DNA of 64,000 nt from contig CBDCOA010000003.1 of NCBI GenBank assembly GCA_965219585.1, positions 2,001,375 to 2,065,374 on the forward strand, read 5' to 3'. Under the pieces are notes generated by a model. It had not been told where the DNA came from. It was given only the letters and a program-made list of their open reading frames with translations, and ran no database searches. The stretch comes from Bryobacterales bacterium. Lineage in GTDB: Bacteria > Acidobacteriota > Terriglobia > Bryobacterales > UBA6623. The position numbers and the translations under genes are program-made. This document shows, one piece after another, positions 3,001 through 60,841 of this stretch; position 1 is the stretch's first letter, and each line of letters starts with the position of its first letter.

Positions 3001-3800
3001 GGGAGTGATCCATAGCGTCGGGGTGATCGCCGACGCGTCACTGGCCAACCAAGACTGGGAGAGGTTCGAGCGCGTCCTGAGCCCCAAGGTTCTGGGCGCG
3101 TGGCAATTGCACAGGGCCACCGCTTCGAGAGACTTGGATCTCTTTATCCTTTTCTCAAGTGCGGCCGGCGTGCTCGGCAGCCCGGGCCAGGCCAACCACG
3201 CGGCGGCGAACGCTTTCTTGGACCACTTGGTACGCCACCGCCGTTCGATGGGCCTTTCCGGCCAGTCGATCGCGTGGGGCCCATGGTCGGAGATCGGCGA
3301 AGCGGCGGAGCAGCGGGACAGGCTTCACAGCCGCTTCAAGAGGCTCGGGATCGGCTGGATTGCGGCATCACGCGGAATGCGGGCCTTCTCGTGGCTGGTT
3401 CGACAGGACTTGCCGGCCAGCATGGCGGCTCCGGTGGACTGGCAACAATTCTCCGTGCATCTGAAGGACAGCCAGCTGCTAGGGGAGCTGCTCGCTGGCA
3501 CCCAGCGAGTGACCGGACTCGGAACACAGGCCGGCGACATGGTGTCACGCCTGCGGAATGCGCCAGAGGAAGAGCGCGTGCAGCTGCTGACAGCCCTGCT
3601 TCAGGCCGAGTCGCAGGCGGTGCTTGGCCTCCCCGCTCCTCCCGACCCGTCGGTGGGCTTCTTCGATCTGGGCATGGATTCGCTGATGGCCGTGGAACTG
3701 ACCAATCGGCTGAACCGAGCCTTGGCTGGCGAACACCATGCGTCCAGCAGCCTCGTGTTCGACCATCCTGACATCAACGCCCTGGCCCGCCACCTGACCG
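1..3800 (+). other. PKS module A (partial): cMT ~340-1115, psiKR ~1135-1780, ER ~1780-2730, KR ~2755-3460, ACP ~3570-3800
   Basis: cMT motif [12 protein letters not shown] starts at 578. ER has HAAAGGVG (~2190-2215) and RFVEIGK with the Lys codon aag at 2471-2473. KR has TGGLSGIG and QANHAAAN with His codon cac at 3197-3199. The ACP DSL Ser codon is at 3680-3682. Confidence 0.85.
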
Positions 3801-38600: not shown

Positions 38601-41600
38601 ATGGCAGGGCTGGAAGCCTTGGGCTGGCGGCGCGAGAAGGGTGCGGTCGTAGATCTGTCCCTGGCGCAAGAGCAGCTGAAGGTCGTGGGGGACCACCGGA
38701 GACTGTTCGGGCGGATGCTCGCCATGCTGGCCGAGGCCGGGGTCTTGCAGGCGGAGGCGGAGGGCACCCCGGGCTGGGCGGTGGCCGTCGGCGCGGACGA
38801 CGACTTGCCAGAAGGACTGGCGTCGGAACCTGGGGCCGTCGGGGCGCGGCTGCTGGAGCGGCATGCACACGGCGCGCACGAGCTGGGCGTGCTAATTCGC
38901 TGCGGGGAGACGCTAGCGGACGTGCTGCGGGGCCACGCGGATCCGCTAGAAGTGCTGTCCGGCCCCGAAGGTGCCGGGCTGGCGGACATCTACCGGCACG
39001 CACCGGGGATGCGCGCGGCGAACCGTATGGTCGGCAAGACGGTGGCAGCGCTCGTGGCGGGCCTGCCCAAGGGCCGTCCTTTGCGGGTGCTCGAGATCGG
39101 GGCCGGCACGGGCAGCACGACGGCGGAGGTGCTGGCAGTGCTGCCGGCGGGTCGATTCAGCTATGTCTGCACGGACAGCTCCCAGAGTTGCCTCGCAGAG
39201 ACAGAGGCGCGATTCGGTGCGGGAGTCGAGTCCCGGGTGCTGGACATCGAGGCGGACCCGGCAGGCCAGGGGCTGGAGCCGCACCGATACGACCTGGTGA
39301 TCGCGGCGGACGTGCTGCACGCAACACGGGACCTCGGGAAGACACTGGAGCATTGCCGGAGGCTGCTGGCGCCGGCTGGGCACTTGGTGGTGCTGGAGTC
39401 CCTGCGCCCGCAGGCATGGCGGGACCTGACGTTCGGGTTGATGGAGGGTTGGTGGCGATTCGCGGACCCGTACCGGGACGATCAAGCCTTGGCGGGAGCG
39501 AGCGCGTGGCGGCAGGCGTTGGAGGAATCGGGCTTCGGTGACGTGGAAGTGCTGGAGAGCGGCGCGGAGGACACGGCCTGGCAAGGGGTGATCGTAGCGC
39601 GGGGCCAATTCGAAGCGGAGGAAGAGCCGGGCGTGTGGGTGCTGGCCGGAGGGGCTTCAGCGCTGGCTCAGGAGCTGGCCGAGAAGCTGGAGACACGCAA
39701 TCAGGCGGTCGTCTTGGCGAGGCACGACACGGACCAACTGGCAGGAGTCACGACGGCGTATGTGGACCCGACGAGGCGAGAGGCCTGGAGCTCGCTGCTG
39801 GCGGATCTGCGCAGCGAGGCCCCTCTGCGAGGCGTGGTGCACCTAGGCGCCCTAGAGGGCCACGGAGCAACGGCGACGACGCCGGAACTGGCACAAGACA
39901 TGGCCCGGATCGGGGAGGGGGCTCTGGCGCTGCTCCAGGGGCTGCAGGACGTGGGGGCTGAGCCCCTGGAAGGCATGTGGTTCGTTACGCGGGGTGGCCA
40001 AGTGGTCGAGCGCGAGCGAGGCGGCCAATTGGCAGGGGCGACGCTGTGGGGCTTGGCTAGGGCGGTGGCGCTGGAGGCACCGCAGTTGCGCTTGCGCATG
40101 GTCGATCTCGATCCGCGGGCACCGCTCCAGGCGGACTCGCTGCTAGACGAATTGCTGGATGCCGACCGGGAGACGCTCGTGGCTCACCGAGGCGCCACCC
40201 GCCATGCAGCGCGGCTCGTGCGGGCCGCCCGGACGGGCCGCCTGCGGCTGCCGGAGGAGGCGGGTTGGCGCCTTGCCCCGGGCACCGGCGGAAGCCTGGA
40301 TGACCTGAGGGTAGAGCCCGCAGGCCTGCCCGCACCGGGAGAAGGCAAGATCCGCGCATCCGTGAGCGCGGCAGGACTCAACTTCTACGACGTCTTGTCC
40401 GCAATGGGGGTTGTCGATCTGTACAACCCCCTGGGCGCGGAGTTCTGCGGTCGGGTAATCGCGATCGGTCCGGGCGTAACCTCAGTGGCAGTTGGAGACC
40501 GGGTGGCCGGCCTCGCCGCGGGAGCCTTCGGCCCCGAGGTTGTCACGAGCGAGGAACTGGTCGCGAAGTCGCGTTCCGGCTTGCCGGCGGCGGCGCTGGC
40601 AACCGTGCCGACGACTTTCCTGACAGCGGCCATAGCTTTCGAGCTGGCCGGCCTCCAAGCCGGCGACCGGGTGCTAGTGCACGCCGGGGCCGGCGGTGTG
40701 GGCTTGGCGGCAATCCGCTTGGCCCAGGCTGGCGGCGCGGAGGTGATCGCGACGGCGAGCAGCTGGAAGCGCCCGTATCTGCGGTCGCTGGGCGTGCAGC
40801 ACGTGTTCGACAGCCGAACCACGGCCTTCGGCGAGAAAGTTCTGGCGGTTACCGGGGGAGCGGGCGTCGAGGTCGTGCTGAACAGCCTGACGGGCCCGGG
40901 ATTCATCGAGGCGAGCCTTGCGTGCCTGGGCCAGGGCGGCAGGTTCGTCGAGATCGCCAAGCGCGACATCTTCAGCGCGGAGCAGATGGCGGCGGCCAGG
41001 CCAGATGTCGACTACCACATCCTGGCGCTCGATCAACTCGTGATCGATGAGCCGGAGAGAGTCGGAACACAGCTGCGGGCGTTGATGGATCGGATCGACT
41101 CCAAGGATTTGGAGCCGCTCCCGCACAGCGCATGGCCCCTAGCGGAGGCGAGCGCGGCGATGGAGCACATGCGGTCGGCGCGCCATGTGGGCAAGATTGT
41201 GCTGACGCTGCCGTCGCTGGCGTCCGGCGGGCTGCGGGGGAACGGCACGTATCTGGTGACGGGCGGCCTAGCTGGGATTGGACGACTGGCGGCGACCTGG
41301 CTGGCTGACAACGGGGCGCGCTGGATCGTGCTGAACGGCCGGCGGGAGCCCGACTCCGAAGCCGGCGCAGCAATCGCGGCGCTGCGGGAGCGGGGAGTCA
41401 CGGTGCAGGTGGAACTGGCGGACGTGACCGACTCCGCTGCCCTAGACTCCATGCTAGAGAGGGTCGAGGCTGCGATGCCGCCGCTGGCAGGGGTGATTCA
41501 CAGCGCGGGGGTAATCGCCGACGCATCGCTGACCAACCAAGACTGGGGGGGATTCGAGCGAGTCTTGGAGCCGAAAGTGCTTGGGGCCTGGCACCTGCAC

Positions 41601-44600
41601 AGGGCGACGGCGGACCGGGACTTGGATCTGTTCGTGATGTTCTCGAGCATTGCTGGCGTGCTGGGGAATGCAGGTCAGGCGAACTACGCGGCGGCGAACG
41701 CGTTTCTGGACCAGTTGGCGCGGCACCGGCGGTCGGTGGGATTGGTCGGCCAAGCGATCGCGTGGGGGGCTTGGTCGGAAGTGGGCGAAGCAGAAGAGCG
41801 GCGTGCTCGGATCGCGCAGCAGTTGGCGGCGGCCGGCCTGGGCTGGATCACGCCGGAACGTGGCCTGCGTGTCTTCGACAAGCTGCTGCGGCAAGACTTG
41901 GTTGCCCCGGCAGCGGTCTCGATGGACTGGCAACGGTTCGCAGCCCTTCTGTCAGCGGACCAGCCCCTGCTGGACGAGCTTGTGGACTCCAAGCCCGTAG
42001 CAGAGGAGACAGCCCCAACGCTCGATCTCAGGAACCGTCTGCGAGAGGCGTCGCCCGGGGATCGCGAAGCCCTGCTAATGGAAATCGTGCAGGGCGAGGT
42101 CCAAGCGGTCCTGCAGCTTGCCTCACCCCCAGACCCGGCCGTCGGCTTCTTCGATCTCGGCATGGATTCGTTGATGGCGATTGAGCTGACGAACAGGTTG
42201 AACAGGTTGTTGACTGGCGAGTACCGGCTGGCTAACACCGCCGTGTTTGACCATGTCGACATCGCGAGCCTCGCACGACACCTGGCCGTGGAACTGCGTG
42301 TCGTTGAAGATGAGAGCCCGGAACCCGAACGGGCCGCGGCCCGCAGGCCGGAGGATGGCGGGATCGCTGTAGTCGGAATGGCGTGCAGGTTCCCGGGCGG
42401 GCAGGACCTGTTCAGGTTCTGGCAACAGCTCGAGGACGGGGGCAGCGCAATCACGGCGGAACGGCCAGGGGATCTCTGGGTCCATGCTGTCAGCGATTCC
42501 AAGGCGAGCTCTTCAGTCCGAGAAGCCGGTCGTTGGGGAGCGTTCATCGACGGGATCGACCAGTTCGATCCCGGCTTCTTCCGGATCACACCGATCGAGG
42601 CAGAGGGGATCGATCCGCAGCACCGGCTGCTGTTGGAGACAAGCTGGCACGCGCTAGAAGACGCAGGGATTAATCCCGGCTCTCTGCGTGGCCGCCGAGC
42701 CGGGGTTTTCGTGGGGATTTCAGGCAGCGAGTACAAGGATCTGATCCAGGCAAGCGAGAGCGACTTCTTCGATATCACGGCCCTGGAAGGGAACAGTACG
42801 AGCACTGGGGTCGGCCGCGTCGCGCACTTCCTCGGCCTCGAGGGTCCGGCAATGCCCGTGGACACGACGTGCTCTTCGTCGTTGGTGGCACTGCACCAGG
42901 CTTCGGCGGCACTGCGCTTGGGAGAAGCCGACCTGGCGCTGGCGGGGGGCGTGAACGCGATTCTCTCGAAGCGTGCGACCTACGGGATGGCCGGAGTGGG
43001 ACTGCTGTCGAATGACGGGCAGTGCAGGGCCTTCGATGCCTCGGCCAACGGATACGTGCGAGGAGAGGGCTGCGGCATGGTGGTCCTGAAGCGCCTGGCT
43101 GACGCAAAACGCGACGGGGACCCAATCTGGGCAGTGATCCGAGGATCGGCCGTGAACCACAACGGGGGCGGGGCGGGCCTGACCGTGCCGAACCTTGGGG
43201 CGCAGAGTCGGCTGCTCAGGGAAGCGCTCGCGAGCGCCGGGTTGGAGCCCCCCGACGTGGACTATCTTGAGGCACATGCGACGGGGTCGCTGCTTGGGGA
43301 CTCAGTCGAGTTGCAGGCCGCAGCCGAGGTGTACGGGGCGGGACGATCTTCCGACAGACCCCTGCTGCTGGGGTCCGTGAAGTCGAACATTGGGCACTTG
43401 GAGGCCGCTTCCGGCGTGGCTAGCCTGATCAAGGTTGTCCTAGCGATGCAGCGGCGGACCATTCCCAGGCACCTGCACTTCCGCGAGCCAAGCCCTGAGA
43501 TCGATTGGGGAAACTTGCCAGTGAAGGTCACGTCGGACGAAACTCCGTGGCTTTCGGCACAGCCTGGCTGCCCCTTGAGGGCAGGCATCAGTTCCTTCGG
43601 GCTCTCGGGCACAAACGCACACGTGCTCGTCGAGAGTTGCCAAACGACGGGCACCCATTCCGAGCGGGCGGCGCTCTCCGTGGCAGTCCCGATGCACTCT
43701 TCCGCGGGCTCAGAAACCACGGAGGGATCGTTCCGGGAGCGGGAGACAAGGCTGCTGCCGCTGTCGGGGCGGTCCGCGAGGGCGGTCCGCGACCTAGCCG
43801 GCCAATACTTGTCTTGGCTCGAACAGAATGCGGAGCGGCCAGCCGCGGAACACGAGGGTTCGGACCCGCCTGCCACCAGTGCAGACGCTGCCTCGCTGCT
43901 TGCGGACATGGCGTGGACGGCGGGAGTGGGCCGGAACCACTTTGGCCATCGGGTGGGATTGGTGTTCGGAAGTGCCGACGAACTGCGGGAAAGGTTGACA
44001 GCATTGGCAAGTGCGCGCGACGCCGCCCACTTTGCCGGACGTGCACCGAGTGTGGCATTTGTGTTTGCGGGCCAAGGCAGCCAGTGGCCAGCCATGGGGA
44101 GGGCACTCTACGAGAGAGAGCCAGACGGGCGGGCGATCTTGGAGCGCTGTGACCGGGTTATGCGGAAAGTGCGCGGGGTATCGCTGGTGGATGCGATGCT
44201 CGGTCGGCCAGGTGCCGCCGACGATCAGGGCGATCCGCTTTGGGCGGAACCGGGGCTGTACGCGGTGGAGTGTGCGCTGGCGGCCCTGTGGGAGAGGGTG
44301 GGGGTACGACCAGTCACGGTGCAGGGACACGGCGTGGGCGAGTTGGCGGCGGCCAAGGTTGCCGGAGTGTTCGGCCTGGAAGACGGCCTGCGACTCGCAG
44401 CGGCGCGGGGTGCGCTGAGTAGTTCCTTGCCCACAACAGGTCCGCGCGCCGGAACCCTCCTAGCCGTCTCCGCTCCCATGGAACGCTTGGAGACTGCCTT
44501 GGGCGCGCTGAATTCCGATTCAAGTCACGCTGGGCCGAGCGTGGTGTTGGATTCCGGGACACACCGCCTAGTCCATGGACCGGTGGCGGACATGGAACGG

Positions 44601-45158
44601 CTGGAAGCGCTGATCTCGGCTGAAGGGCTGCGGACGGAGAGGGTGAAGCCGGGGAGGGCTTCGCACGGCAGGTTGGCGGAAGCAGGACTCCATGAACTCG
44701 AATCGGCATTCCAAGGGACAAAGATGACGGTGCCGTCAGTGACCTTGGCCAGTTCGACCACCGGTCGCGATGTCGAGCCAGCCAAGCTGCTGGAGGCGAC
44801 GTACTGGCGACGCCAGGCTAGCGAGCCGGCAATCGACGGACGCAGTGCGGAGGCACCGCAGACACGGAAGGCGGGAATGGTCCTGGAGATCGGCTTCGAC
44901 GGGGACCCGCTGCGGGTCGTGGGCCAGGATTCGCCCAAGGCAGACACCAATGTCGACCCGGCACCTGAGCAGGGGATAAGCCTCCGGCAAGAATCTGGCA
45001 GTTCCAGCGGCTTTGCGACGGCGGTGGCCGCGGCGTACGAGGCTGGCGCGGCGCTCTCGTTCGAAGGGCTGTTCACCGGGGAGAGGCGCCGAAAGGTGCC
45101 GCTGCCGGGCTATCCGTTCCAGCGGGAGCGCTACTGGGTCACGCCCTCCAAGCATTAG
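11691..45158 (+). CDS. Giant type I modular polyketide synthase, 11,155 aa. Four complete KS-AT-DH-cMT-psiKR-ER-KR-ACP modules (C, D, E, F) followed by a terminal KS-AT(Ser->Gly) didomain with no ACP or TE.
   Basis: ATG at 11691 overlaps the gene 1 stop by 8 nt (gacgATGGATAAgt). One uninterrupted ORF runs to TAG at 45156-45158. The IA(I/V)[10 protein letters not shown] starts lie at 11784, 19482, 27099, 34734 and 42363. GHSVGE/HAFHS ATs, HxxxGxxxxP DHs, LE(V/I)GAGTG cMTs, TGGLAGIG KRs and GxDSL ACPs recur with about 7.6-kb period. Confidence 0.95.
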   Translation: MDKLTKYERLSRKLLAELNLRKEEIAQFRQPIAIVGMACRFPGGEGLASYWRQLEEGRCTVTEGRPGSVAGAPIVGSRPGSEAQDARRWGSFVREIDRFDADFFRIAPVEARLLDPQQRMLLETSWHALEEAGIDPSRLVETRTGVYAGISTSDYRALLAAGGEQDSGLYAVSGVSGSTAIGRVAFVLGLQGPAIAVDTACSSSLVALHQACVALQQGEADLALAGGVNAILAPSVTEATSKAGMLAPDGRCKTFDASANGFVRGEGCGIVVLKRLANAEADGDRIWAVIPGSAVNHDGASAGLTVPNGPAQEKVIAEALARAGLEPADVDYLEAHGTGTELGDPIEVHAASSAYGSGRRAGRPLLIGSVKTNIGHLESAAGVAGLIKVVLSMDRGVIPKHLHFRNPNPRIAWEHLPVEVTSEALPWPSFADRPWRAGLSSFGFSGTNAHMLIEAYGRPRGRSAQTKPSFSKRGLAVDVPVSLPAQAPALAAGQGPLAPREQRLLPLSGRSSKAVRELASRYLAWLQGRESEALGEEESQALLADMAWTAGLGRTHFDRRAGLVCGDLAELRSGLEEVVAGREIARAAQEPQVAFVFTGQGSQWAGMGRWLYEREPVARAVLDRCEQVMQELRGASLLDVMFGEPAAGSLDETEWTQPTLYALECALAAQWASVGVRPAAVLGHSVGEIAAAQAAGVFGLEDGLRFAAARGESMGSLPTEGPAAGAMLAVFAPQQRVAEALAEHNAGAAGAGLSLAADNGTHRVVSGPRAELEAIAEHFEPAGVRVAWLNTSHAFHSALMDPALADIEGALEAVALRSPAVPLVSNVAGRAMRAGEQLDGAYWRRQAREPVAFAAGVAALAEIGAEVVIEIGPQAVLGPLVEQAWPAGNAGGAESRPAVLGSLRREEGAAGGFAAAAAAAYEAGVAVSFEHLFAGESRRRVSLPVYPFQRERFWVDPLQRPTAGEGHALLGARRESARGGLTFETEMYSSAPAWLGDHRVFGMVVAPGALYGVLGVEVAASAAGEGAAVLEDLQLHEPLVWAQETPDGVAGGEGRSVQVFVDGDEGASPRVVEVYSRAGSEAAWQLHATARVLRGRADTGGAIDPKALREGLSSVDSADFYRGVAERGIEYGALFRGLAAVWSGPGEALGEVVLPPEADRGEMWLHPAQLDACFQVVGTTGGDDGDSAADTFMPFGWERLWLAGPLPDRVLCHARTRQARGAGGAGAEASEVQVVDLGLYDQQGMPLGGVSGLVLKRATRAALLSAVEGVDDLLYEVVWRERPQLGGPQSADFLAAPGVVGELRGSFAENLEAEGAALESWDDLLAGLAQLSQSYALAGMDALGWHRETGAIVEPEPLRRQLRVVADHRQLFRRLLEMLEQAGILQAQATESPSWVVTAGSGEPLPEGVAENPRALGAELLERHPAGSQELGLLMRCGDALADVLAGRVEPLELLFGGEDSGAAGLYHHSPGMRAANRTLGAAVGLLAAGLPERRRLRVLEVGAGTGSATAQALQTLPKGRFEYLYTDISAGFFAEAEERFGAEHAGIDYRVLDIEADPEVLGLDAHGHDLIIAANVLHATRDLEKTLENCRRLLAPAGLLVALETFRPQEWMDLTFGLLEGWWRFSDRYRSEHAMAGEAAWRQALKDAGFGDAEVLQGCVGDVVWQGVIVARGPLEVDEAPGLWVLAGNGSELVQELAGRLATRNQTVVVAGPGTRPEASPHARITSADVDPAKREAWRALLEGLPADARLRGVVHLGALDERGNAVTAAELAECTARIGKSALALVQGLQDAGAEPLDGLWFVTRGGQVVKRDQGGELAGATLWGLGKAVALEAHQLRPRMVDLDPREPEPLGRLVDELLHADRETHVAHRGAARYAARLARSAGTGRLGLPGEPGWRLARPAGGELDALGIEPAGLAAPGAGEIRVAVAAAGLSLHDVLIAMGTVDQASPLGTEFCGRVVAIGPGVTAVSVGDRVIGLAAGAYGPEVVTSQELVAKAPGEFPAAALATIPAAFVTAALALELGGLEAGQRVLVHTGAGDVGLAAIQLARAAGAAVFATASTEKLAHLRSLGVEQVFDSQPAAFGQEVLAVTAGAGVEMVLSSLTGPGFIEASLTCLAQGGRFVEIAGRDTWSAEQMAEARPDVGYHTLAVDRLVSEEPERVGAHLRVVAQGMENGALVPLPHSAWPLAEAGGAMEYFRSERPVGKAVLTLPRLVTGGLREDGTYLITGGLAGIGLLAAGWLADNGARWIVLNGRREPGPEAEAAIAGLRERGVEVRVELADVADSAAVDGMLERIGATMPPLAGAIHSAGVLADASLANQGWERFEKVMGPKVLGAWHLHRATLGRDLDLFVLFSSLTGVLGNAGQANHAAANAFLDQLARHRQSLGLPGQSIAWGPWSEVGEAEEQRSRIAERLAATGLGWIVPRRGMRALDRLLRQDVVSGTVLSVDWPRFGSRLPARQSLLEELVAPRAAAQSAAAKVDLVERLRTVPAREREGLLAGFLQGELQAVLRLASPPEVTSGFFDLGMDSLMAVELRNRLNRAFRGEYKASSTAVFDFPDIKSLAEHLAAELGETEAASTERERPVPAQALEGGIAIVGMACRFPGARDLSEFWDELEGAGWAVTPGRQGSAVGPTEDDFPESLGEHDARRWGAFVDEIDQFDAEFFRIAPVEAELLDPQQRLLLETSWLALEEAGIDPGRLKGGRSGVYAGIYTNDYSELIDRAGRRTTDLYVATGNSASTAIGRVAFALGLEGPAMAIDTACSSSLVAVHQAAVALQRGEADLALAGGVNAILTTTGSELLAKGGLLAPDGRCKTFDGSADGFVRGEGCGVVVLKRLREAEADGDRIWAVIRGSAVNQDGASAGLTVPNGPAQERVIGDALARAGLEPAEVDYLEAHGTGTELGDPIEVQAAAAVYGRGRAPDRPLLMGSVKTNIGHLEAAAGIAGLIKVALSMERGVLPRHLHFEKPSPRIDWDALPVEVAAEARRWPATPGRPVRAGVSSFGLSGTNSHVVLEAPDRDGKGPRDRAATAESESGGSRERLLPLSGRSPRAVRELAGRYLSWLRDRDGEASGEQESRSLLADMAWTAGLGRSHFDHRAGLVCADLAELRSGLEAVVAGREIARAAHGPQVAFVFTGQGSQWGGMGRWLYEREPVARAVLERCEQAMQELRGASLLDVMFGRPGAAGDLDDTGWTQPALYALECALAAQWASVGVRPAAVLGHSVGEIAAAHVAGVFGLEDGLRFAAARGESMGSLPVEGEASGAMLAVFAPQQRVAEALAEHGGGAAETGLGVAAENGTHRVVSGPRAALEALAERFELAGVRVARLNTSHAFHSALMDPALDTIEGALEAVELGTPAVPLVSNVTGRALRAGERMDGAYWRRQAREPVAFAAGVAALAEIGAGLVVEIGPQAVLGPLVEQAWPAGNGGGSGSKPAVLASLRREEGAAGGFAAAAAAAYEAGAAVHFEGLFAGESRRRMSLPGYPFQRERFWVEPPKRRIAGGGHALLGVRHEAARGGVTFETEMYSSDPAWLEEHRVFGMVVAPGALYGVMGVEVAATQSGAGAAALEDLQLHEPLVWDQARPDGAAGGDGRSVQVFVDGAAGSSGRVFEVYSRGGAESAWRLHATARVRRGQADTGRAIDPQSLRTGLSGVDSTDFYQSIAERGIEYGPLFRGLAAVWTGPGEALGEVVLPPEAGRDGMWMHPAQLDACFQVVGAAGRDSGESGADTYIPFGWERLWLSGPLPGQLLCHARTREAGHAAGAGSEAAQTLVADLDLYDQRGMPLGGVSGLVLKRATRAALLSAVEGVDDLLYELVWRERPRIGGPQSADFLAAPAAVRGLAGSFAEWLAAGGVPLASWTALEGGLEQLSRSYAMAALEALGWRRRKGSVVDPSRLRRQLKVVADHRKLFSRLLGMLAEAGLLQARAADLPGWSVAVGAREDLPEDLVEPRELARLLRERHAHGSVELGLVMRCGEALADVLRGRVDPRELLGGDHAGAQGVYRDAPAMRAVHRMMGATVGALVAGLPEQRRLQVLEIGAGTGSATAEVLAALPEGRFDYFYTDILAGCFPEARERFGAAIECRVLDIEEDLAIQGLEAHRYDLVVAANVLHATRDLGKALENCRKLLAPAGQLVTLEAFQAAAWRDLTFGLAEEWWWSSDRYRGECPLVGASVWRQALADAGFGEAEVLEGAVEDAVWHGVIVARGPLEVEQDPGLWVLAGDASPAVWELAEKLAASNQAVIVAGQAEERDSAQPAGVTTAYVDPTRREAWRALLGDPPAEAPLRGVVHLGALEGRGAAAATPELAQDVARIGASALALVQGLQDAQAKLLDGVWFVTRGGQAVERERGGQVAGSALWGLGKTVGLEAPQLRARMVDLDPRLPLQLDALVSELLHADPETHIAHRGATRHAARLVRGPRTGRLRLPEEAGWRLARDAAGALDALRVEPASLAAPGAGEIRASVTAAGLDFHDVLFAMGIADLQSELGAEFCGHVTETGTGVTAVSVGDRVVGLAAGAFGPEVVTSEELVARAPAGLSAAALATVPTAFLTAARGFELAGLEAGDSVLVHAGAGAVGMAAIRLAQAAGAVVIATASDSKGAYAQSLGVEHVFEGQATAFAQKVLDVTGGAGVAIVLNGAAGPDCVEASLSCLARDGRFVETVRDGSWSSEQMAAARPDVAYHAPAIDQLLVDEPGQIGTQLRALMRRMEAGELEPPLYSAWPVAEAGAAMELLRSGRTEGKLALMLPPLASGGLREDGTYLVTGGLAGIGRLAAGWLADSGARWIVLNGRREPDAEARAAIASLRERGVDVRTELADVTDPAAVDAMLERIEATMPALAGVIHSAGVISDASLANQDWERFEGVLGPKVLGAWHLHRATANRDLDLFVLFSSIAGVLGNPGQANYAAANAFLDQLARHRRSLGLAGQSIAWGPWSVTGQAEELRSRLAEGMAAGGVGWIRPRRGLRALDRLVRQDVVNGTVLSVDWPQFASRLPVTLPQLEELVAAGPAAQDRAAKTDLAERLRAVPAGEREGLLSGFLQAEVQSVLRLASPPDPTAGFFDLGMDSLMAVELRNRLNRELGGEYKASSTAMFDFPDIKSLAGHLAAELGEIEPAPIERKRPLPAQGLDGGIAIVGMACRFPGAQDLPGFWRELEAAECAVTPGRQNSTVGPTDEDVEGLLGEDDARRWGAFVEEIDKFDAEFFRIAPVEAELLDPQQRLLLETSWLALEEAGIDPGRLKGGRTGVYAGILSNDYSELIDRAGRTTSDLYVATGNAGSTAIGRVAFALGLEGPAMAVDTACSSSLVAVHQAVVALERGEADLALAGGVNAILTSTGNELLAKGGMLAADGRCKTFDASANGYVRGEGCGVVVLKRLQEAQADGDRIWAVIRGSAVNQDGASAGLTVPNGPAQERVIGEALARAGLEPADVDYLEAHGTGTELGDPIEVQAAAAAYGPGRAPDRPLLMGSVKTNIGHLEAAAGVAGLIKVALSMEHGVLPRHLHFEKPSPRIDWDALPVEVTAEARRWPTTPGRPVRAGVSSFGFSGTNSHVVLEAPDRNGKGPVDRSATAESESGGSRERLLPLSGRSPRAVRELAGRYLSWLRDRDGEASGEQESRSLLADMAWTAGLGRSHFDHRAGLVCADLAELRSGLEAVVAGREIARAAHGPQVAFVFTGQGSQWGGMGRWLYEREPVARAVLERCEQAMQELRGASLLDVMFGRPGAAGDLDDTGWTQPALYALECALAAQWASVGVRPAAVLGHSVGEIAAAHVAGVFGLEDGLRFAAARGESMGSLPVEGEASGAMLAVFAPQQRVAEALAEHGGGAAETGLGVAAENGTHRVVSGPRAALEALAERFELAGVRVARLNTSHAFHSALMDPALDTIEGALEAVELGTPAVPLVSNVTGRALREGERMDGAYWRRQAREPVAFAAGVAALAEIGAGLVVEIGPQAVLGPLVEQAWPAGNGGGSGSRPAVLASLRREEGAAGGFAAAAAAAYEAGAAVHFEGLFAGESRRRVSLPGYPFQRERFWVEPPKRRIAGGGHALLGTRRDMVGGEVTFETQMFASAPEWLGDYSVLGLIVVPGSLYGAAAVETAGAMPGMAGVVVEDLHVQVPMHFAGEDGHSEPDDRGKTVQVVVKDTEESAARRMELYSQGPEDTWTLHAAARLGRPADRVDLPAAVDIEARRSGLSPKSAPDIYRGLAATGIEYGEALRSVEAVWSSQGEAVAEIALPGGLEPMGSWLHPAQIEGFFQLAALLANDTEGARPGALIPSGWERLWLVGPLPERLVCCARMRASNGVGLQRAGDSGAQVADLDLYDPRGMPLGGVSGLALKPTTRAALLSAAGGVEDLLYEVVWREQPWVSGLQSAGFLAAPSAAGELRGTFIEKLEAEGAVLESWEELLGGLAQVSRSYALAGMEALGWHRETGAIVEPEPLRRQLRVVADHQHLFRRLLGMLEKAGVLQARETESPSWVVTVGSGEPLPEGVAQNPRALAEGFLERHPSGSHEMSLLMRCGDALADLLAGRVEPLELLFGGEFAGLADLYHHSPGMRAANRMLGAAVGLLAAGLPEGRRLRVLEVGAGTGSATAEALKALPAGRFEYLFTDLSAGFFAEAEERFGATDAGIEYRVLNIEAAPEGLGLPAHRHDVIIAANVLHATRDLAKTLENCRRLLAPAGLLLALETFRPQEWMDLTFGALEGWSRFSDQYRSEHAMADEGVWRQALADTGFGEVEVLEGGVGDVVWQGVLVARGPLEVADTPGLWVLAGNGSAAAQELAGRLATRNQTVIVAGQGTMPEASQHARITAADMDPAKREAWRALLEGLPAEARLRGVVHLGALNEQGNAVTTAKLAECTTRIGESALALVQGLQDAGAEPLDGLWFVTRGGQVVKRDQGGELAGAMLWGLGKAVAMEADQLRPRMVDLDPREPEPMDRLVDELLHADRETHVAHRGAARFAARLVSSARTGRLGLPGEPGWRLTRDTGGAPDALRVESAGLAAPGPGEVRVAVAAAGLNSHDVLIAMGISDQHSPLGTEFCGQVTSTGAGVTEVSAGDRVVGLASGAFGPEVLASEELVAKAPDGFPAAALAAIPAAFVTAELALELGGLEAGHRVLVHAREGDVGLAAVQLARAAGAEVLATASTDMLAYLRSLGVEHVFDSQATDLGQEVLAATAGAGVGMVLNSLAEPGFIEASLACLEQGGRFVEIAGRDTWSAERMAEARPDVGYHVLALDRLASDEPARVGTQLRSAVRRMGARKLEPLPHSAWPLAEAGAAMEYFRSERPVGKVVLTLPRLATGGLREDGTYLVTGGLAGIGLLAADWLADCGARWVVLNGRQEPDAEAKPAIEALRKLGVEVRVEVTDVTDSAAVDGMLERIERTMPPLAGVIHSAGVLADATLANQGWERFERVIGPKVLGAWHLHTATAGRDLDFFVLFSSIAGVLGNAGQANHAAANAFLDQLAWHRRSMGLAGQSIAWGPWSEVGEAEEQRARIAERLAASGVGWIVPRRGLRVLDSLVRRDVVCATVLSVDWSQFASHLPATLPLLRELVAPRAGGRGVAAKVDLVERLRAVSARERERLLAGFLQGEVQAVLRLASPPEVTSGFFDLGLDSLMAVELGNRLNRAFGGEYKPTSTEVFDFPDIKSLAGHLAAAFGEIEEAPAGPERPVPTLGQEGGIAIVGMACRFPGARDLSAFWDELAGAGCAVTPGRQGSSVGPSEGDFPEQVGEQDARRWGAFVDEIDLFDAEFFRIAPVEAEVLDPQQRILLETSWLALEEAGIDPGRLRGGRTGVYVGIATNDYSEVIERGGRRTGDLYVATGNSGSTAIGRVAFSLGLEGPAMAVDTACSSSLVALHQGVAALERGEADLVLAGGVNAILTPTSTELLAKGGMLAPDGVCKAFDAAANGFVRGEGCGVVVLKRLREAEADGDRIWAVIRGSAVNQDGASAGLTVPNGPAQERVIGQALARAGLEPAEVDYLEAHGTGTELGDPIEVRAAAAAYGRGRAANRPLLMGSVKTNIGHLETAAGIAGLIKVVLSMEHGMLPKHLHCRQLNPRIDWDALPVEVTTEARPWPASPDRPVRAGVSSFGFSGTNSHVVLEAPESHRRGHGPLMPIAAAQAGTGGPPEPRGKRLLPLSGKSSLAVRELAGRYLSWLESRGGVLGQGEESESLLADMAWTAGAGRSHFEHRASVVFGDLSELRAALEELAADREIARAAQEPQVAFVFTGQGSQWAGMGRWLYEREPVAQAVLDRCEKVMQELRGASLLEVMFGQPGAAGDLDDTGWTQPALYALECALAAQWASVGLSPVAVLGHSVGEIAAAQVAGVFELEDGLRFAAARGELMGSLPVDGPEAGAMLAVFASPQRVSQALEEHAAGDDGSGLSLAAENGTHRVVSGPLEEVETLAKRFEQAGVRVARLNTSHAFHSTLMDPVLDDIEEALEAVTLGSPAVALVSNVTGRAVREGERLDGAYWRRQAREPVAFAAGVQALAEIGVDVVVEIGPQAILGPLVEQAWPAESSDGAVSGPRVVESLRREAGGANGFSAAVAGAYEAGAAISFEGLFAGEIRRRVPLPGYPFQRKRFWIEQGKRKVTEEGHALLGARRDSARGGMAFETDLHATDPAWLADHRVFGMVVAPGALYGVLGVEAAATTGGTDAVVLQDLQLHEPMIWLEEPEDGPPAGEGRTVQVFVDGAEGSSGRLFEVYSQGSGETAWQLHATARVERGEAGTPEAIGLGALRETLSRVDSTDFYRSIRRRGIVHGPAFQGLAAIWSGPGEAIGEVVLSSQAGPGRLWMHPAQLDACFQVVVATVRDAEEFDSDTYMPIGWERMWLAGPVPERMFCHARLLERPDAGTPGPGPAEVLVAELGLYDMQGAALGGVRGLVLKRATRAALVSAIEGVEDLLYETAWRKQPRAGRQRAADLPAAQAGLEQLRGSFAESLASEGVPPEAWSALHEDLDRLARSYAMAGLEALGWRREKGAVVDLSLAQEQLKVVGDHRRLFGRMLAMLAEAGVLQAEAEGTPGWAVAVGADDDLPEGLASEPGAVGARLLERHAHGAHELGVLIRCGETLADVLRGHADPLEVLSGPEGAGLADIYRHAPGMRAANRMVGKTVAALVAGLPKGRPLRVLEIGAGTGSTTAEVLAVLPAGRFSYVCTDSSQSCLAETEARFGAGVESRVLDIEADPAGQGLEPHRYDLVIAADVLHATRDLGKTLEHCRRLLAPAGHLVVLESLRPQAWRDLTFGLMEGWWRFADPYRDDQALAGASAWRQALEESGFGDVEVLESGAEDTAWQGVIVARGQFEAEEEPGVWVLAGGASALAQELAEKLETRNQAVVLARHDTDQLAGVTTAYVDPTRREAWSSLLADLRSEAPLRGVVHLGALEGHGATATTPELAQDMARIGEGALALLQGLQDVGAEPLEGMWFVTRGGQVVERERGGQLAGATLWGLARAVALEAPQLRLRMVDLDPRAPLQADSLLDELLDADRETLVAHRGATRHAARLVRAARTGRLRLPEEAGWRLAPGTGGSLDDLRVEPAGLPAPGEGKIRASVSAAGLNFYDVLSAMGVVDLYNPLGAEFCGRVIAIGPGVTSVAVGDRVAGLAAGAFGPEVVTSEELVAKSRSGLPAAALATVPTTFLTAAIAFELAGLQAGDRVLVHAGAGGVGLAAIRLAQAGGAEVIATASSWKRPYLRSLGVQHVFDSRTTAFGEKVLAVTGGAGVEVVLNSLTGPGFIEASLACLGQGGRFVEIAKRDIFSAEQMAAARPDVDYHILALDQLVIDEPERVGTQLRALMDRIDSKDLEPLPHSAWPLAEASAAMEHMRSARHVGKIVLTLPSLASGGLRGNGTYLVTGGLAGIGRLAATWLADNGARWIVLNGRREPDSEAGAAIAALRERGVTVQVELADVTDSAALDSMLERVEAAMPPLAGVIHSAGVIADASLTNQDWGGFERVLEPKVLGAWHLHRATADRDLDLFVMFSSIAGVLGNAGQANYAAANAFLDQLARHRRSVGLVGQAIAWGAWSEVGEAEERRARIAQQLAAAGLGWITPERGLRVFDKLLRQDLVAPAAVSMDWQRFAALLSADQPLLDELVDSKPVAEETAPTLDLRNRLREASPGDREALLMEIVQGEVQAVLQLASPPDPAVGFFDLGMDSLMAIELTNRLNRLLTGEYRLANTAVFDHVDIASLARHLAVELRVVEDESPEPERAAARRPEDGGIAVVGMACRFPGGQDLFRFWQQLEDGGSAITAERPGDLWVHAVSDSKASSSVREAGRWGAFIDGIDQFDPGFFRITPIEAEGIDPQHRLLLETSWHALEDAGINPGSLRGRRAGVFVGISGSEYKDLIQASESDFFDITALEGNSTSTGVGRVAHFLGLEGPAMPVDTTCSSSLVALHQASAALRLGEADLALAGGVNAILSKRATYGMAGVGLLSNDGQCRAFDASANGYVRGEGCGMVVLKRLADAKRDGDPIWAVIRGSAVNHNGGGAGLTVPNLGAQSRLLREALASAGLEPPDVDYLEAHATGSLLGDSVELQAAAEVYGAGRSSDRPLLLGSVKSNIGHLEAASGVASLIKVVLAMQRRTIPRHLHFREPSPEIDWGNLPVKVTSDETPWLSAQPGCPLRAGISSFGLSGTNAHVLVESCQTTGTHSERAALSVAVPMHSSAGSETTEGSFRERETRLLPLSGRSARAVRDLAGQYLSWLEQNAERPAAEHEGSDPPATSADAASLLADMAWTAGVGRNHFGHRVGLVFGSADELRERLTALASARDAAHFAGRAPSVAFVFAGQGSQWPAMGRALYEREPDGRAILERCDRVMRKVRGVSLVDAMLGRPGAADDQGDPLWAEPGLYAVECALAALWERVGVRPVTVQGHGVGELAAAKVAGVFGLEDGLRLAAARGALSSSLPTTGPRAGTLLAVSAPMERLETALGALNSDSSHAGPSVVLDSGTHRLVHGPVADMERLEALISAEGLRTERVKPGRASHGRLAEAGLHELESAFQGTKMTVPSVTLASSTTGRDVEPAKLLEATYWRRQASEPAIDGRSAEAPQTRKAGMVLEIGFDGDPLRVVGQDSPKADTNVDPAPEQGISLRQESGSSSGFATAVAAAYEAGAALSFEGLFTGERRRKVPLPGYPFQRERYWVTPSKH
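11784..19410 (+). other. PKS module C: KS 11784-13060, AT 13467-14555, DH 14585-15480, cMT 15945-16725, psiKR 16745-17380, ER(degenerate) 17385-18335, KR 18363-19060, ACP 19180-19410
   Basis: AT has GHSVGE and HAFHS. DH has DHRVFGMVVAP and AQLDACFQ. ER reads HTGAGDVG and RFVEIAG (Gly 18078-18080 at the Lys position). KR reads QANHAAAN (cac 18804-18806). ACP Ser is at 19287-19289. Confidence 0.85.
19482..27030 (+). other. PKS module D: KS 19482-20755, AT 21096-22190, DH 22215-23100, cMT 23565-24335, psiKR 24355-25000, ER(degenerate) 25005-25950, KR 25981-26680, ACP 26800-27030
   Basis: DH has EHRVFGMVVAP and AQLDACFQ. ER reads HAGAGAVG and RFVETVRD, with no Lys. KR has the canonical QANYAAAN (tac 26421-26423). 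ACP Ser is at 26904-26906. Confidence 0.85.
20800..22235 (+). repeat. AT-domain repeat, copy 1 (module D KS-AT linker + AT + post-AT linker)
   Basis: Copy 2 lies exactly 7617 nt downstream. 20800-21805 is identical by direct reading. The supplied track confirms this: shadow ORFs 20809..21240, 20882..21694 and 21109..21705 translate identically to 28426..28857, 28499..29311 and 28726..29322. 21806-22235 differs by roughly a dozen substitutions. Confidence 0.9.
27099..34665 (+). other. PKS module E: KS 27099-28372, AT 28713-29807, DH0 29832-30720, cMT 31190-31970, psiKR 31990-32625, ER(degenerate) 32630-33585, KR 33615-34310, ACP 34435-34665
   Basis: The DH motif reads WLGDYSVLGLIVVPG, with Tyr codon tac 29931-29933 where the other modules have His. 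It also reads AQIEGFFQ, with Glu 30453-30455 where the others have Asp. ER reads HAREGDVG and RFVEIAG. KR reads QANHAAAN (cac 34056-34058). ACP reads GLDSL (Ser 34539-34541). Confidence 0.85.
28417..29852 (+). repeat. AT-domain repeat, copy 2 (module E)
   Basis: See copy 1. Identity decays upstream of ~28417 (KS region about 90% at protein level) and ends abruptly after HALLG at 29852, where the divergent module E DH begins. Confidence 0.9.
34734..42300 (+). other. PKS module F: KS 34734-36010, AT 36366-37455, DH 37488-38360, cMT 38840-39610, psiKR 39630-40255, ER 40260-41212, KR 41243-41940, ACP 42065-42300
   Basis: DH has DHRVFGMVVAP and AQLDACFQ. ER has HAGAGGVG (~40679-40703) and RFVEIAK with Lys codon 40959-40961. 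KR has QANYAAAN (tac 41685-41687). ACP Ser is at 42168-42170. This is the only complete module in which every reductive motif is canonical. Confidence 0.85.
42363..45158 (+). other. Terminal KS-AT0 didomain: KS 42363-43635, AT-like 44052-45155. No ACP, TE, reductase or condensation domain follows.
   Basis: KS has VDTTCSSS, EAHATGS and SNIGHLEAASG, so Cys/His/His are present. The AT-like region has GQGSQW but reads VQGHGVGE, with Gly codon ggc at 44331-44333 at the active-site Ser position, and RASHG where the other modules have HAFHS. The ORF stops right after the post-AT linker YPFQRERYWVTPSKH. Confidence 0.85.
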
Positions 45159-45782
45159 CGGTTGCGAACTCAAGGGAATCTCGATGGTGGATCGCACGTC
45201 AGGAGATCGTATAGGCCAACTGCGGTACCTTGGAACAGCACGGAGTTGCTCGAACGCAGCTGGTCGGGAGGCTTCGGTCAGGCTGGCTAGTCCTAGCCCA
45301 CGGCCTGCGAGCAGCGGTGACGCCAGCGGCCGCCGGTGGCATCTGGCATTCGCCAGCCAAATTCAACACCAGAAGCCCGGACGTACGAGTCCGACACGAC
45401 CGAGACCGACTGGCGGCGTGATGCTGGAAGCACCCCATGGCAGCCGGGCAGTTGTCGTGCGAGATGGCGCAGGGAGCCTGCTCCTACCATGCCGGAGCGT
45501 CAATCCGCACCGCGCTGGCTCGCCAAGGGTTTCCGTTGAGGTGGCTGCAGGCGTTCGCTCTGGGATGAGTGCGCATCGGGCTGATTGGGCCACTAGACCC
45601 GGCATTGACCGCGACCCAATCCGCCAGCAAACCCTCTGCTGCCGTCCGTCTTGTGCAACGGACTACTCGCGAGGAGTTCAGCCCGCTTCCGCAGCAGCCT
45701 TGAGCGCTTCTGCGGACTGGCCAGGTTCGGAGGCAATGGCAGTGCAAGGCGAGCTGAAGCGGCTGCTAGGTGTCGTGTAGCC

Positions 45783-46931
45783 ATGAGTGAACCTCTCGTC
45801 TCGGGCAGCACTGCGGACCGTCGCCAACCGTCCGGGGTGCCAAGCCTCTCATATATGTTCCCGTTCATTCCGCCCAAGGTGTGGATTCGACTGCTTTGGG
45901 AACACAACGGATCACAACTTCGTCATTGGCCTCACTTAGCACAGCAGCTTCTGACCAGCATCCTGGCGAGCCCCTTGAAGTGGGCCGAGCGCATTCAATT
46001 CGACCAACGGATTGCCAGAACACCGATCGAGGAGGCCCCGCTGACGATTCTGGGCCTCCCACGCAGTGGGACTACTCACTTGCACAACTTGCTCGCTCAA
46101 GATCCAAGGCACGGGTTCGTCTCCACGTTTCAAGCGATTGCACCGGAGTGTTGTCTGAGCGGGGGAGAAACACTCCAACGGTGGGTTGCAAAGCATCTTC
46201 CAAGCAATCGACCAATGGACAGCGTAGAATTCGCACTGGAGCACCCACAAGAGGAAGAATTTGCGATAGCCAACTTGAGCCATATGTCGTTCTACCATGC
46301 AATGTGGTTCCCGAGACTCTCAACGGAATATTTTGGCAAGTATGTCCTTATGTATGGACTGAAATCCGAAGAATTCATCGAGTGGAGAAAAACCTATCTT
46401 GACGTCGTACGCAAGGCCCAATATTATTCCAAGAGGCGTCGAATCATACTCAAGAATCCGTTAAGCATTTTCAGAATACCTGCAATTCTCAAGATCTTCC
46501 CAAGCATGAAGTTCATCCACATTGTGAGGAATCCATTTCTGCTATACCAATCCTTGTGCAATGCAATGCGACAGCTCTCCTTTGGATTAGACTATTCGGA
46601 CAAAGAAATCGAGAACTTTGGCATCATGTACTATACGATCGGACTGAATTCATACCTCCAAGACCGTAAGCTGATTCCGTCAGGAAACTTGATTGAAGTG
46701 CGATATGAAGATCTAATTGCAAATCCAATTCCTGAACTTGAGCAGGTTTATACACAACTCGATCTCCGCGAATGGGAACAACACAAGGGTCACATTTCTG
46801 AATATATTCGCTCCATATCAGACTACAAGAAAAATCGTTACAAGATTAGCAAGTCAGCGATTGACCGGGTAAATGACGCTTGGGGTTTTGCGGTAAAGGA
46901 GTGGGGGTATAGCGCGCCAGAACCGCAGTAA
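45783..46931 (+). CDS. Stand-alone PAPS-dependent sulfotransferase (TPST-like / Sulfotransfer_3-type)
   Basis: The 5'-PSB loop is LGLPRSGTTHLHNLLAQDP. The 3'-PB segment is FPSMKFIHIVRNPFLLYQS, which fits the ...FPxAKFIhIVRdPxxxxxS pattern. Stop TAA is at 46929-46931. The start is uncertain: ATG 45783 or the in-frame ATG 45855 (MFPFIPPKVW), where the GC drop begins. The track ORF start at 45651 is an upstream extension with no support. Confidence 0.85.
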   Translation: MSEPLVSGSTADRRQPSGVPSLSYMFPFIPPKVWIRLLWEHNGSQLRHWPHLAQQLLTSILASPLKWAERIQFDQRIARTPIEEAPLTILGLPRSGTTHLHNLLAQDPRHGFVSTFQAIAPECCLSGGETLQRWVAKHLPSNRPMDSVEFALEHPQEEEFAIANLSHMSFYHAMWFPRLSTEYFGKYVLMYGLKSEEFIEWRKTYLDVVRKAQYYSKRRRIILKNPLSIFRIPAILKIFPSMKFIHIVRNPFLLYQSLCNAMRQLSFGLDYSDKEIENFGIMYYTIGLNSYLQDRKLIPSGNLIEVRYEDLIANPIPELEQVYTQLDLREWEQHKGHISEYIRSISDYKKNRYKISKSAIDRVNDAWGFAVKEWGYSAPEPQ

Positions 46932-47380
46932 GGGGCAGTTGTATCAGAAATGAGGCCCCGGGGCACATCGTACCACTTCGGGCACAGCGGCTTGGTCGCC
47001 GATCAGCAGAGGGCCGGCCGAGCGAGGAACACCAGCGGAGCGATTGGAGTTGAGGATCGAGGCTTGCTTGCGAATCCAGACAGACAAGTCGTTGGGCAAG
47101 GCAACCGTGCCTAGCGACAATTGTTCATGTCGGCGTGTTGCCTCATCTCCGGATGTTCTCTGGATTCCCATCGTCGGCAACTCGCTGTGAATGGAAAGGT
47201 CTTGGGGAAATTCTTGGGCACGGGTCGAAGTGCCGCGCCAAATCATCGACGGCGGGCGATTTGGAGAATTGCTCTTTCCACCACGCCGAGCGCTTCGTAC
47301 TGGCTCGAGGCCCTCGGAGAGCCCCGCTGTGCGGCCGCGTACGCCTGCCGGCTGACCGGGCGGCATGTTGATTGAGCCCA

Positions 47381-50402: not shown

Positions 50403-50641
50403 ACCCGCATTCGGACAGCTGCTAGCTTCGAGCTGGCGGGTCAGCTGGAGACCTCAGGCCCCATATCGGCATCAGCGCCGCAAACACTTCAGCGGTTGGG
50501 CGAACATGCAAGACCAAGGGCCCAATATCCCGGCCGCCTTATATATAATGGGCGCAGACCGCCGACGGCCCAGGCCTTCGGGCCAGCGGTGATCCGGTGA
50601 GTGAGTTGTCTGGAGCAAGCCGGCGCCCCGCAACTTCTGTA

Positions 50642-54408: not shown

Positions 54409-54508
54409 CGCCGAAGTCCTTCGGTCCGGGGCCTCGGTCAATCGTCGGGCAGCGGCTGCACGGCAGCCAAGCACCCAAGGGTTGCCGGCAAGCGTCACTC
54501 GCGGCGCA

Positions 54509-56983: not shown

Positions 56984-57110
56984 GGGAAGTTCCCTCCATC
57001 TTGGCCCGGGCATCCGCGCCCGAACTGCCAAGAGTCTACCGCAGCGCCGAGAGCCGCGGACTGCCATGCAAGTGTTGAGGGCTGTCCGGCTCGGTCGACC
57101 GAGCCGGCGG

Positions 57111-59330: not shown

Positions 59331-59431
59331 GGTAAAGCTCCGGCTCGCTGGCTCCCAGCAAGAAAACGGCCCGAGACCCCACGGGCCTCAGGCCGAATTA
59401 TAAGACGTGCGCCGCGCCGCGGCAACGGCAC

Positions 59432-60797: not shown

Positions 60798-60841
60798 GGT
60801 GAATGTCCTCCTGTTTGTTTGCGTGCTCGAGAGTCGCGGCG

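Follow-up and report, generated by a model that had tools for sequence, protein, structure and literature searches.

How is the product of a giant polyketide synthase (PKS) released when its last polypeptide ends in a ketosynthase (KS) followed by an acyltransferase-like domain that has lost its nucleophile? The question is raised by a 64-kb stretch of DNA (the window, whose positions are used throughout) from a metagenome-assembled genome (MAG) of the Bryobacterales, in which the second of two PKS open reading frames (ORFs), ORF2, continues past its last acyl carrier protein (ACP) into one more KS and a dead acyltransferase (AT), designated AT0, and then stops. A preliminary description of this terminus had considered a split module whose dehydratase/ketoreductase/ACP (DH/KR/ACP) partner is encoded elsewhere, a KS used for non-elongating transfer or release, and a decaying vestigial module. 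Sequence comparison shows that the KS-AT0 didomain is a conserved end-piece, found at the C-terminus of a large family of synthases that are reducing and C-methylating, have their ATs in cis (cis-AT) and are distributed over several phyla. We put at about one in two the probability that it represents a split terminal module, in which the KS extends the chain or hands it to an ACP acting in trans, AT0 serves as a scaffold and a neighbouring hydrolase releases the product.

The terminal didomain, its constraint and its recurrence

Beyond the last in-cis ACP (42066..42293, + strand; phosphopantetheine Ser in GMDSL, 42159-42173), ORF2 encodes a complete KS-AT didomain (42363-45155), with Pfam E-values of 4.6e-84 for ketoacyl-synt, 1.9e-39 for Ketoacyl-synt_C and 2.4e-36 for Acyl_transf_1. 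The terminal KS (42363..43652, +), characterized by Pfam, alignments, substitution ratios and strain variation, carries its nucleophile in DTTCSSS (Cys10394, TGC codon at 42870), its first His in EAHATGS (43269-43289), and the Lys and the other His in GSVKSNIGH (GSVKSNIGHLEA at 43386; NIGHLEA, 43386-43406), which bears out the earlier reading of an extra KS with Cys and both His after the last ACP and adds an intact Lys to it. Neither the loading-type change of Cys to Gln or Ser nor the loss of the HGTGT His seen in non-elongating KS0 domains is present, as Cys10394 is in place and EAHATGS keeps its His; the domain does carry NHNG (43155-43172) instead of NQDG. A KS-AT linker domain (43653..44042, +; Pfam KAsynt_C_assoc, CurL-like and RhiE-like linker families) leads into AT0, a full-length AT-like domain (44043..44942, +; Pfam, alignment and motifs) that retains GQGSQW at 44070 and whose C-terminal motifs are degraded. 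The reported replacement of the nucleophile Ser by Gly (GHGVGE, GGC at 44331-44333) was verified; the HAFHS region, described as unrecognisable, indeed reads RASHG (44655), but the alignment shows that HAFH has kept its catalytic His. The post-AT linker (44943..45158, +; YPFQRERYW, 45111-45137) closes the protein, whose C-terminus, YPFQRERYWVTPSKH-TAG, places the stop (TAG, 45156-45158) six residues past the motif YPFQRERYWV. As first stated, the ORF ends directly after this linker and no off-loading domain follows in cis or in the next 600 nt: there is no PP-binding, thioesterase (TE), reductase or condensation domain after the didomain, no docking tail beyond the post-AT linker of ORF2, and no trace of a domain in the adjoining spacer.

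The stop codon is genuine. The locus is covered by an ENA scaffold (L001), a Logan contig (L002) and two Bryobacterales MAG contigs (L003 and L004, at 100% and 99%), all of which have the identical stop and frame, with zero indels over 42363-45782, and an orthologue, L082 (86% amino-acid identity), terminates at the same residue. Since four independent assemblies and this orthologue agree, the frameshift or erroneous stop in a longer ORF that had been named as a conventional explanation is ruled out. From the PKS stop to the start of a sulfotransferase gene extends a non-coding spacer (45159..45782, 624 nt), in which tblastn searches with the DH-to-ACP portion of the last module detected no remnant of DH, C-methyltransferase (cMT), enoylreductase (ER), KR or ACP (best E 0.29); a decayed DH/KR/ACP/TE stretch downstream of the stop was thus looked for and not found. 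The spacer is ~78% identical to that of L082, which corresponds to neutral divergence (dS 0.25-0.3), and its density of single-nucleotide polymorphisms (SNPs) between strains is about twice that of coding DNA.

Nei-Gojobori estimates of dN/dS between the window and L082 are lowest in the region for the terminal KS (0.16), as compared to 0.22 for the preceding module part, 0.34 for the KS-AT linker and 0.35 for AT0, while strain SNPs show synonymous to non-synonymous counts of 8:2 in the terminal KS and 6:6 in the linker plus AT0. In L082, AT0 is further eroded, GQGSQW having become GHGSRW and the residual His being gone (RTSDS). These data argue that the KS is kept as an enzyme and the AT as a fold rather than as a catalyst; judged by its sequence, AT0 is catalytically dead and drifting, yet still constrained. 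The notion of a decaying vestige consequently fails for the KS and half holds for the AT, which is dead and drifting under residual constraint here and truncated or deleted elsewhere.

Synthases that terminate in KS-AT0, or in a KS from which the AT has been deleted, were found at L005, L006, L008-L011, L079, L080, L081 and L082. At the closest loci in reference genomes the synthases have a single module, measure 3,200-3,500 aa and run KS-AT-DH-cMT-ER-KR-ACP-KS-AT0. In the two from Alphaproteobacteria (L005 and L006) AT0 shows the Ser-to-Gly change and is shortened C-terminally; in those from Acidimicrobiia (L008-L011), a set of relatives that includes 'Candidatus Poriferisocius', the AT is wholly deleted and the KS, the linker and the post-AT linker are left; and three loci from metagenome assemblies (L079, L080 and L081) follow the same pattern. 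The nucleophile Ser is absent in ~75 of the 120 best database matches to the AT0 of the window (G, D, E, A and others take its place), and these Ser-less matches end no more than a few residues from the post-AT linker, their KS part, where present, having Cys and both His. Endings as in the window were seen in P0014, P0023, P0047, P0050, P0072, P0076, P0085, P0094 and P0106, and among metagenome loci in L102, L128, L137, L139 and L158; further full-length examples, taken from a library of representatives at 50% identity that was the source of the long synthases, are P0249, P0256, P0261 and P0316. In the shortened forms the AT profile covers only positions ~1-116 and ~207-296, so that the part removed is the small subdomain. 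A terminus described as atypical is so when set against textbook cis-AT systems, but is standard within this family.

The end-piece is also linked to a recurrent set of genes. A metagenome scan anchored on the hydrolase encoded beside the PKS yielded 80 loci, 51 of which, those of at least 10 kb, were analysed. A KS lies beside the hydrolase in 37 of the 51, and each of these 37 is a terminal-type KS that has Cys-His-His and in which the NxDG Asp has given way to N (35 loci) or S (2 loci). The nucleophile position of the AT holds G, D or A (Ser once) unless the whole AT has been deleted, and the stop follows 1-190 codons further on. The hydrolase adjoins every terminal-KS terminus examined, and a free-standing ACP of 70-90 aa is encoded directly upstream of it in 33 of the 37 loci, together with a phosphopantetheinyl transferase (PPTase) in 11, giving an operon order of ACP-(PPTase)-hydrolase beside the terminal KS of the relatives; at L008, for instance, the PKS stop is followed by 61 nt, the ACP, the PPTase and the hydrolase.

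In the window, the alpha/beta hydrolase (47381..48309, - strand) was recognized by homology to the hydrolases of relatives and through an AlphaFold2 model (pLDDT 92). Its identity is 87% with the copy in L082 and 42-47% with those in L005, L006, L079 and L081, and it belongs to an HGNG / GVFHSxS / THLxQLE family with 1,108 database relatives at E < 1e-10, in which Ser117, Asp249, His278 and the HGNG oxyanion motif are invariant. A Foldseek search with the model placed the curacin TE CurM (3qit) at rank 2 (E 2e-13), other top matches being esterases, zearalenone lactonases and an acyl-CoA hydrolase. Where the gene starts is uncertain (GTG at 48307-48309, TTG at 48295-48297 or TTG at 48265-48267). 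A 240-nt stretch upstream of or overlapping it (48280-48519) is missing in L003, and in view of this strain-level indel a 462-aa ORF call reaching 48769 is probably over-extended.

The C-terminal KSs share a signature. All those examined, that of the window included, keep Cys, His, His and Lys, with one exception for the Cys (Gly in P0282). The Asp of NQDG is replaced in each (NHNG in the window; NQNG, NQSG or SQTG elsewhere) and HGTGT is relaxed (HATGS in the window; HGAGS or HGAGT elsewhere), whereas module KSs invariably have NQDG and HGTGT. The change of Gly to Ala in HGTGT appears tolerable, since SwfA, a working sponge PKS, carries HATGT (PMC3908369). In a neighbour-joining tree, which included no authenticated SupA, the KSs of the window and of the mono-modular relatives cluster with 100% bootstrap support against actinobacterial and myxobacterial KSs.

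Finishing the chain: a proposed split terminal module and its rivals

For an end-piece that is conserved, under selection, intact in its catalytic residues and linked to the same genes, we infer the following course of acyl transfer, final condensation, malonyl supply and hydrolysis. The terminal KS would be a working enzyme that accepts the finished chain on Cys10394, with the last in-cis ACP as donor, and probably performs one final decarboxylative condensation with malonyl carried by a free-standing ACP, the latter having been charged by an active upstream AT. The dead AT0 would act only as a scaffold that holds the linker domain and the post-AT linker around the KS, the alpha/beta hydrolase would release the product from the trans ACP, and in the sub-lineage of the window and L082 an acquired sulfotransferase would tailor it. 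Among the options of the preliminary description it is therefore the split module with a trans partner that is best supported, with the amendment that the partner seen in relatives is a free ACP with a hydrolase and not a DH/KR/ACP protein. An ACP-TE protein acting in trans, which had been proposed as the conventional explanation, is largely what the relatives show, but its ACP was not found in the window.

Internal dead-AT modules with their own ACP (GHGVGE, GYGAGE or similar) occur in P0241, P0260, P0265, P0307 and P0352, where the AT of the first module is often the sole intact one; these members of the wider family give the impression of a cis-AT lineage on its way to sharing ATs. As their internal AT0 modules have their own ACP, the domain organization of P0241 and P0352 shows what appears to be AT sharing between modules. 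P0270 (5,097 aa), an unrelated synthase of low GC content, ends in KS-AT0(truncated, GLGLGE)-ACP-TE, with carrier and TE in cis, and by analogy shows what could be the same termination logic on one chain.

Several observations weigh against a split terminal module. Two hidden Markov models (HMMs), one built from in-cis and free ACPs and one from free ACPs only, were run with --max to E = 50 over the 64-kb window and matched only the six in-cis ACPs and no free-standing one, nor did an HMM search find a free ACP in 12 kb of the orthologue L082; because none is encoded in the 64 kb, a trans ACP is assigned to this locus by analogy. The local PPTase is a probable remnant of Sfp type (47196..47354, +), comprising the C-terminal ~60 residues; it was picked up when the PPTase of L079 served as a tblastn query against 5 kb (E 9e-5). 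The altered HGTGT and the lost NxDG Asp of all terminal KSs could point to a changed reaction in place of ordinary elongation. Monophyly of the terminal KSs reaches only 50% bootstrap support in the neighbour-joining tree, and the terminal KS of the window is 60-62% identical to its own module KSs as against 53-57% to other terminal KSs. Given this bootstrap value, kinship was judged from the shared motif changes, which suggest common descent without proving it. Finally, a literature search found no biochemical datum on any member of the family.

A PPTase is also fragmented at the corresponding place in L082, whose layout is PKS, sulfotransferase, metallophosphoesterase, PPTase fragments and convergent hydrolase; the rest of the PPTase gene and the metallophosphoesterase are missing from the window.

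Among the alternatives, the one that survives best, although we consider it unlikely, is a gatekeeper or transfer KS that would accept the finished chain on its Cys and so withdraw it from elongation, without adding a C2 unit and without a trans ACP, the hydrolase then acting directly on the KS-bound chain or on the one carried by the last in-cis ACP. The missing free ACP of the window and L082 would fit such a role, as would the relaxed HGTGT and lost NxDG Asp common to every terminal KS and a dead AT0 that leaves no dedicated extender supply. However, non-elongating KS0 domains typically lose the His of HGTGT, while the window and 37 of the 37 metagenome loci retain the two His and the Lys, residues that serve no purpose other than decarboxylative condensation, and a free ACP accompanies 33 of these relatives. 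The transfer option raised earlier is thus retained as a rival, but weakened, since His, His and Lys are present in every terminal KS examined.

A second alternative, to which we give a poor chance, is suggested by giant synthases that begin with what the window ends with. The hydrolases nearest to that of the window (55-67% identity) belong to the synthases of L084/L085, L086 and L087; that of L084/L085, also from Bryobacterales, was called as one gene of 29,714 aa (in L084), and that of L086 measures 9,369 aa. Together with P0275, these proteins (seen at L084 11174-20933, L086 12771-20909 and L087 7827-9671) start with a homologous KS(Cys to Ser, DTASSSS)-AT0(Ser to Gly; GCGVGE or GRGAGE) unit, after which the next KS comes immediately and no in-cis ACP intervenes. 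Hydrolase and free ACP genes lie just upstream of synthases of the L084-L087 type, L086 also having a sulfotransferase, and P0246 carries a canonical KS(Ser)-AT-ACP loading module before a module of the Sup type discussed below. The C-terminal KS-AT0 of the window could by this token be a displaced loading didomain that, with a free ACP, primes the synthase, leaving termination to the hydrolase alone. Against it stand the retention of Cys by the C-terminal KSs (P0282 excepted) where the N-terminal ones have Ser, and the NxDG Asp, which the N-terminal units keep and the C-terminal ones do not; a KS with Cys is, moreover, a poor dedicated decarboxylase when compared with KSQ and related loading domains. 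The position of the free ACPs upstream of the L084-L087 synthases does raise the prospect that the ACP of the window system may lie at the other end of the cluster, past the left window edge.

Lower again in our estimate is a conventional split module, in which KS-AT0 would pair with a separate DH/KR/ACP(-TE) protein encoded elsewhere, perhaps before the start of the window. Trans-AT systems offer familiar examples of split modules, and the start of the cluster does lie outside the window, with ORF1 crossing its left edge; but more than 40 related loci have no such partner at the terminus, where only ACP, PPTase and hydrolase are found, the post-AT linker is not followed by a docking tail, and the relatives' AT is truncated or deleted. 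That the didomain is a vestige carried as dead weight, or an assembly or sequencing artefact hiding a longer protein, is hardly credible: it would be in keeping with the 52-56% identity of the didomain to the five upstream KS-ATs (64-94% identical among themselves), its GC content of 65-67% against 70% for the PKS and the drifting AT catalytic residues, but not with a stop shared by four assemblies and the orthologue, the low dN/dS of the KS, the lack of downstream remnants and the recurrence of the architecture across phyla.

A further reading can be put forward tentatively, and we regard it as possible rather than probable. Here the Cys-His-His terminal KS(NxNG), AT0, free ACP and hydrolase would constitute a distinct termination or hand-over module, of which the window would be a multimodular offshoot with a sulfotransferase that has lost its local ACP and PPTase and makes a sulfated poly-methyl-branched lipid. 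Within such a module, a last non-reductive extension onto a type-II-like ACP is a possibility, and in the window the terminal KS would either recruit a distant ACP or hand the chain straight to the hydrolase.

The assembly line and neighbouring genes

The upstream assembly line (20..42362, +) was delineated by a Pfam scan per module, a motif scan and a domain-HMM map. ORF1 (20..11698, +), which extends past the left window edge, and ORF2 (11691..45158, +; 11,155 aa) are read in the same direction, and ORF1 with the first 10,224 aa of ORF2 makes up one partial and five complete modules. The order KS-AT-DH-cMT-ER-KR-ACP is found in all six visible modules by Pfam and the domain-HMM map, the upstream acyltransferases have GHSVGE and HAFHS throughout, and the synthase as a whole, with its 6.5 or more modules, exceeds 15,000 aa across the two ORFs. 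The last complete module, termed F in the preliminary description, is module E of this analysis. At the junction of the two ORFs (11691-11698) the ATG of ORF2 overlaps the stop of ORF1 by 8 nt; with ~50 aa after the last ACP of ORF1 and 31 aa before the first KS of ORF2, this is an ordinary ACP|KS protein boundary with space for docking elements, and the C-terminus of ORF2 is bare by contrast.

The catalytic-Tyr motif of the KRs, GQANYAAAN, reads GQANHAAAN in four of the six modules, at 3185 (ORF1 aa 1056), 10895 (aa 3626), 18792 (ORF2 aa 2368) and 34044 (aa 7452), the Tyr being present only at 26409 (aa 4907) and 41673 (aa 9995). GQANHAAAN also occurs in every mono-modular relative checked (L005, L006, L008, P0249, P0282, P0316, P0243 and P0245), so that either the family uses His in place of Tyr or most KRs are idle, and with them the DH and ER domains that act behind them. 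In module D (27099-34733) the catalytic His of the DH is a Tyr (DYSVLGLIVVP) and the NADPH motif of the ER is degraded (HAREGDVG), while its KS-AT is 94% identical to that of the adjacent module C; this pattern points to a recent duplication event, after which the capacity for reduction was lost. The near-identity of the two KS-ATs also carries a risk of assembly collapse.

Between the PKS and the hydrolase lies a gene for a free-standing sulfotransferase of 382 aa (45783..46931, +; Pfam Sulfotransfer_3 E 2e-33), recognizable by the PRSGTT loop for 3'-phosphoadenosine 5'-phosphosulfate. Its GC content is 48.7% (55% at third codon positions, GC3), compared with 70% for the PKS (GC3 84%) and 64% for the flanking spacers; L082 has a 78% identical copy and L086 a related gene, and none is present in the 37 hydrolase-anchored metagenome loci. 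The low GC content and the L082 copy suggest horizontal acquisition before the window and L082 lineages split. A sequence search of the PDB at E <= 0.01 returned only 2z6v and 2zq5, which we take to be mycobacterial Stf-type lipid sulfotransferases. Weak PPTase-like matches at 45348-45500, N-terminal in type (E 0.016-0.16), had prompted the idea that the sulfotransferase was inserted into a PPTase gene; it was dropped in view of the gene order of L082 (sulfotransferase, metallophosphoesterase, PPTase fragments), and only the remnant at 47196-47354 was retained. A 19-nt stretch after the sulfotransferase stop (46961-46979) is missing in L001 and L002. The genes at 49068-64000 (molybdopterin oxidoreductase, PSCyt2/PSD1 (DUF1549/DUF1553), DUF1501, RelA/SpoT, TPR, TonB and SecF) look like housekeeping genes, for which reason the end of the cluster was set at ~48.8 kb.

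Comparison with known systems

The nearest known counterparts are the Sup ('sponge symbiont ubiquitous') PKSs, reportedly described, with SupA, by Fieseler et al. in 2007; SupA itself is said to end in an extra C-terminal KS/AT. The window and its family resemble the Sup group in their fatty acid synthase (FAS)-like reducing module with a C-methyltransferase (KS-AT-DH-MT-ER-KR-ACP) and a malonyl-type AT, in their abundance in sponge-type metagenomes, in mono-modular relatives of ~3,200-3,500 aa that end in KS-AT0 (L005, L006, L008, L081, P0249 and P0316), and in the accessory small ACP, PPTase and hydrolase. Sup enzymes are small, mono-modular, FAS-like PKSs that are ubiquitous in sponges and have been proposed to make methyl-branched fatty acids (PMC3908369, PMC4245539, PMC9864124). 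The synthase of the window is by contrast multimodular, with ORF2 alone at 11,155 aa, and not 'unusually small', and it is accompanied by a sulfotransferase and by no free ACP that could be found locally. Its membership in the group is thus supported by architecture, compared without a SupA reference sequence, while the single small module of the group is not what the window has.

Sup-type synthases dominate surveys of PKSs in sponge microbiomes (PMC4245539, PMC9864124). The termination or hand-over module, if real, would set apart a PKS family that is among the most abundant ones in sponge-type microbiomes, and terminal KS, free ACP and hydrolase would provide a testable model of how Sup-type synthases finish a chain. 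It could also serve annotation: mining tools that expect ACP-TE ends would label such clusters truncated, and a Cys-His-His KS with NxNG, a lost AT nucleophile and a stop after the post-AT linker offer a signature by which to recognize them. As a giant multimodular version with an acquired sulfotransferase, the window hints at sulfated methyl-branched lipids.

In trans-AT split modules, in trans-AT KSs with vestigial AT ('AT docking') regions and in KS0 systems, too, a KS is followed by a non-functional AT-like scaffold, the AT acts from elsewhere, and the polypeptide stops once the KS region is complete, leaving the carrier protein to a separate chain; the window differs in being a cis-AT system with five active in-cis ATs and a full-length AT0, and in a terminal KS that retains both His, unlike KS0. 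CurM/OLS off-loading, by which terminal alkenes are formed, likewise places a sulfotransferase and an alpha/beta-fold hydrolase at a PKS end, but here the two are separate genes with KS-AT0 intervening rather than a fused ACP-ST-TE (ST, sulfotransferase) behind a last, KR-bearing module that provides a beta-hydroxyacyl-ACP, and the sulfotransferase has no similarity to that of CurM at E <= 0.01. CurM-type sulfotransferase-assisted off-loading was rejected on this ground and because the hydrolase occurs without a sulfotransferase in 37 of 37 metagenome loci. Loading didomains of the KSQ/KSS-AT-ACP kind find their counterpart in the N-terminal KS(Ser)-AT0 of L084, L086 and P0275, with which the Sup-type KS clade shares ancestry; the terminal KS of the window has Cys instead and is placed C-terminally, after the last ACP. 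In release of the LovG/LovB type, a reducing, C-methylating synthase without a release domain is likewise served by a separate serine hydrolase as the candidate releaser, although the fungal systems, likened here by description and not by sequence, have neither an extra KS-AT0 nor a free ACP. The window is best filed as a multimodular, sulfotransferase-bearing and locally ACP-less variant of a known, if biochemically unexplained, kind of synthase.

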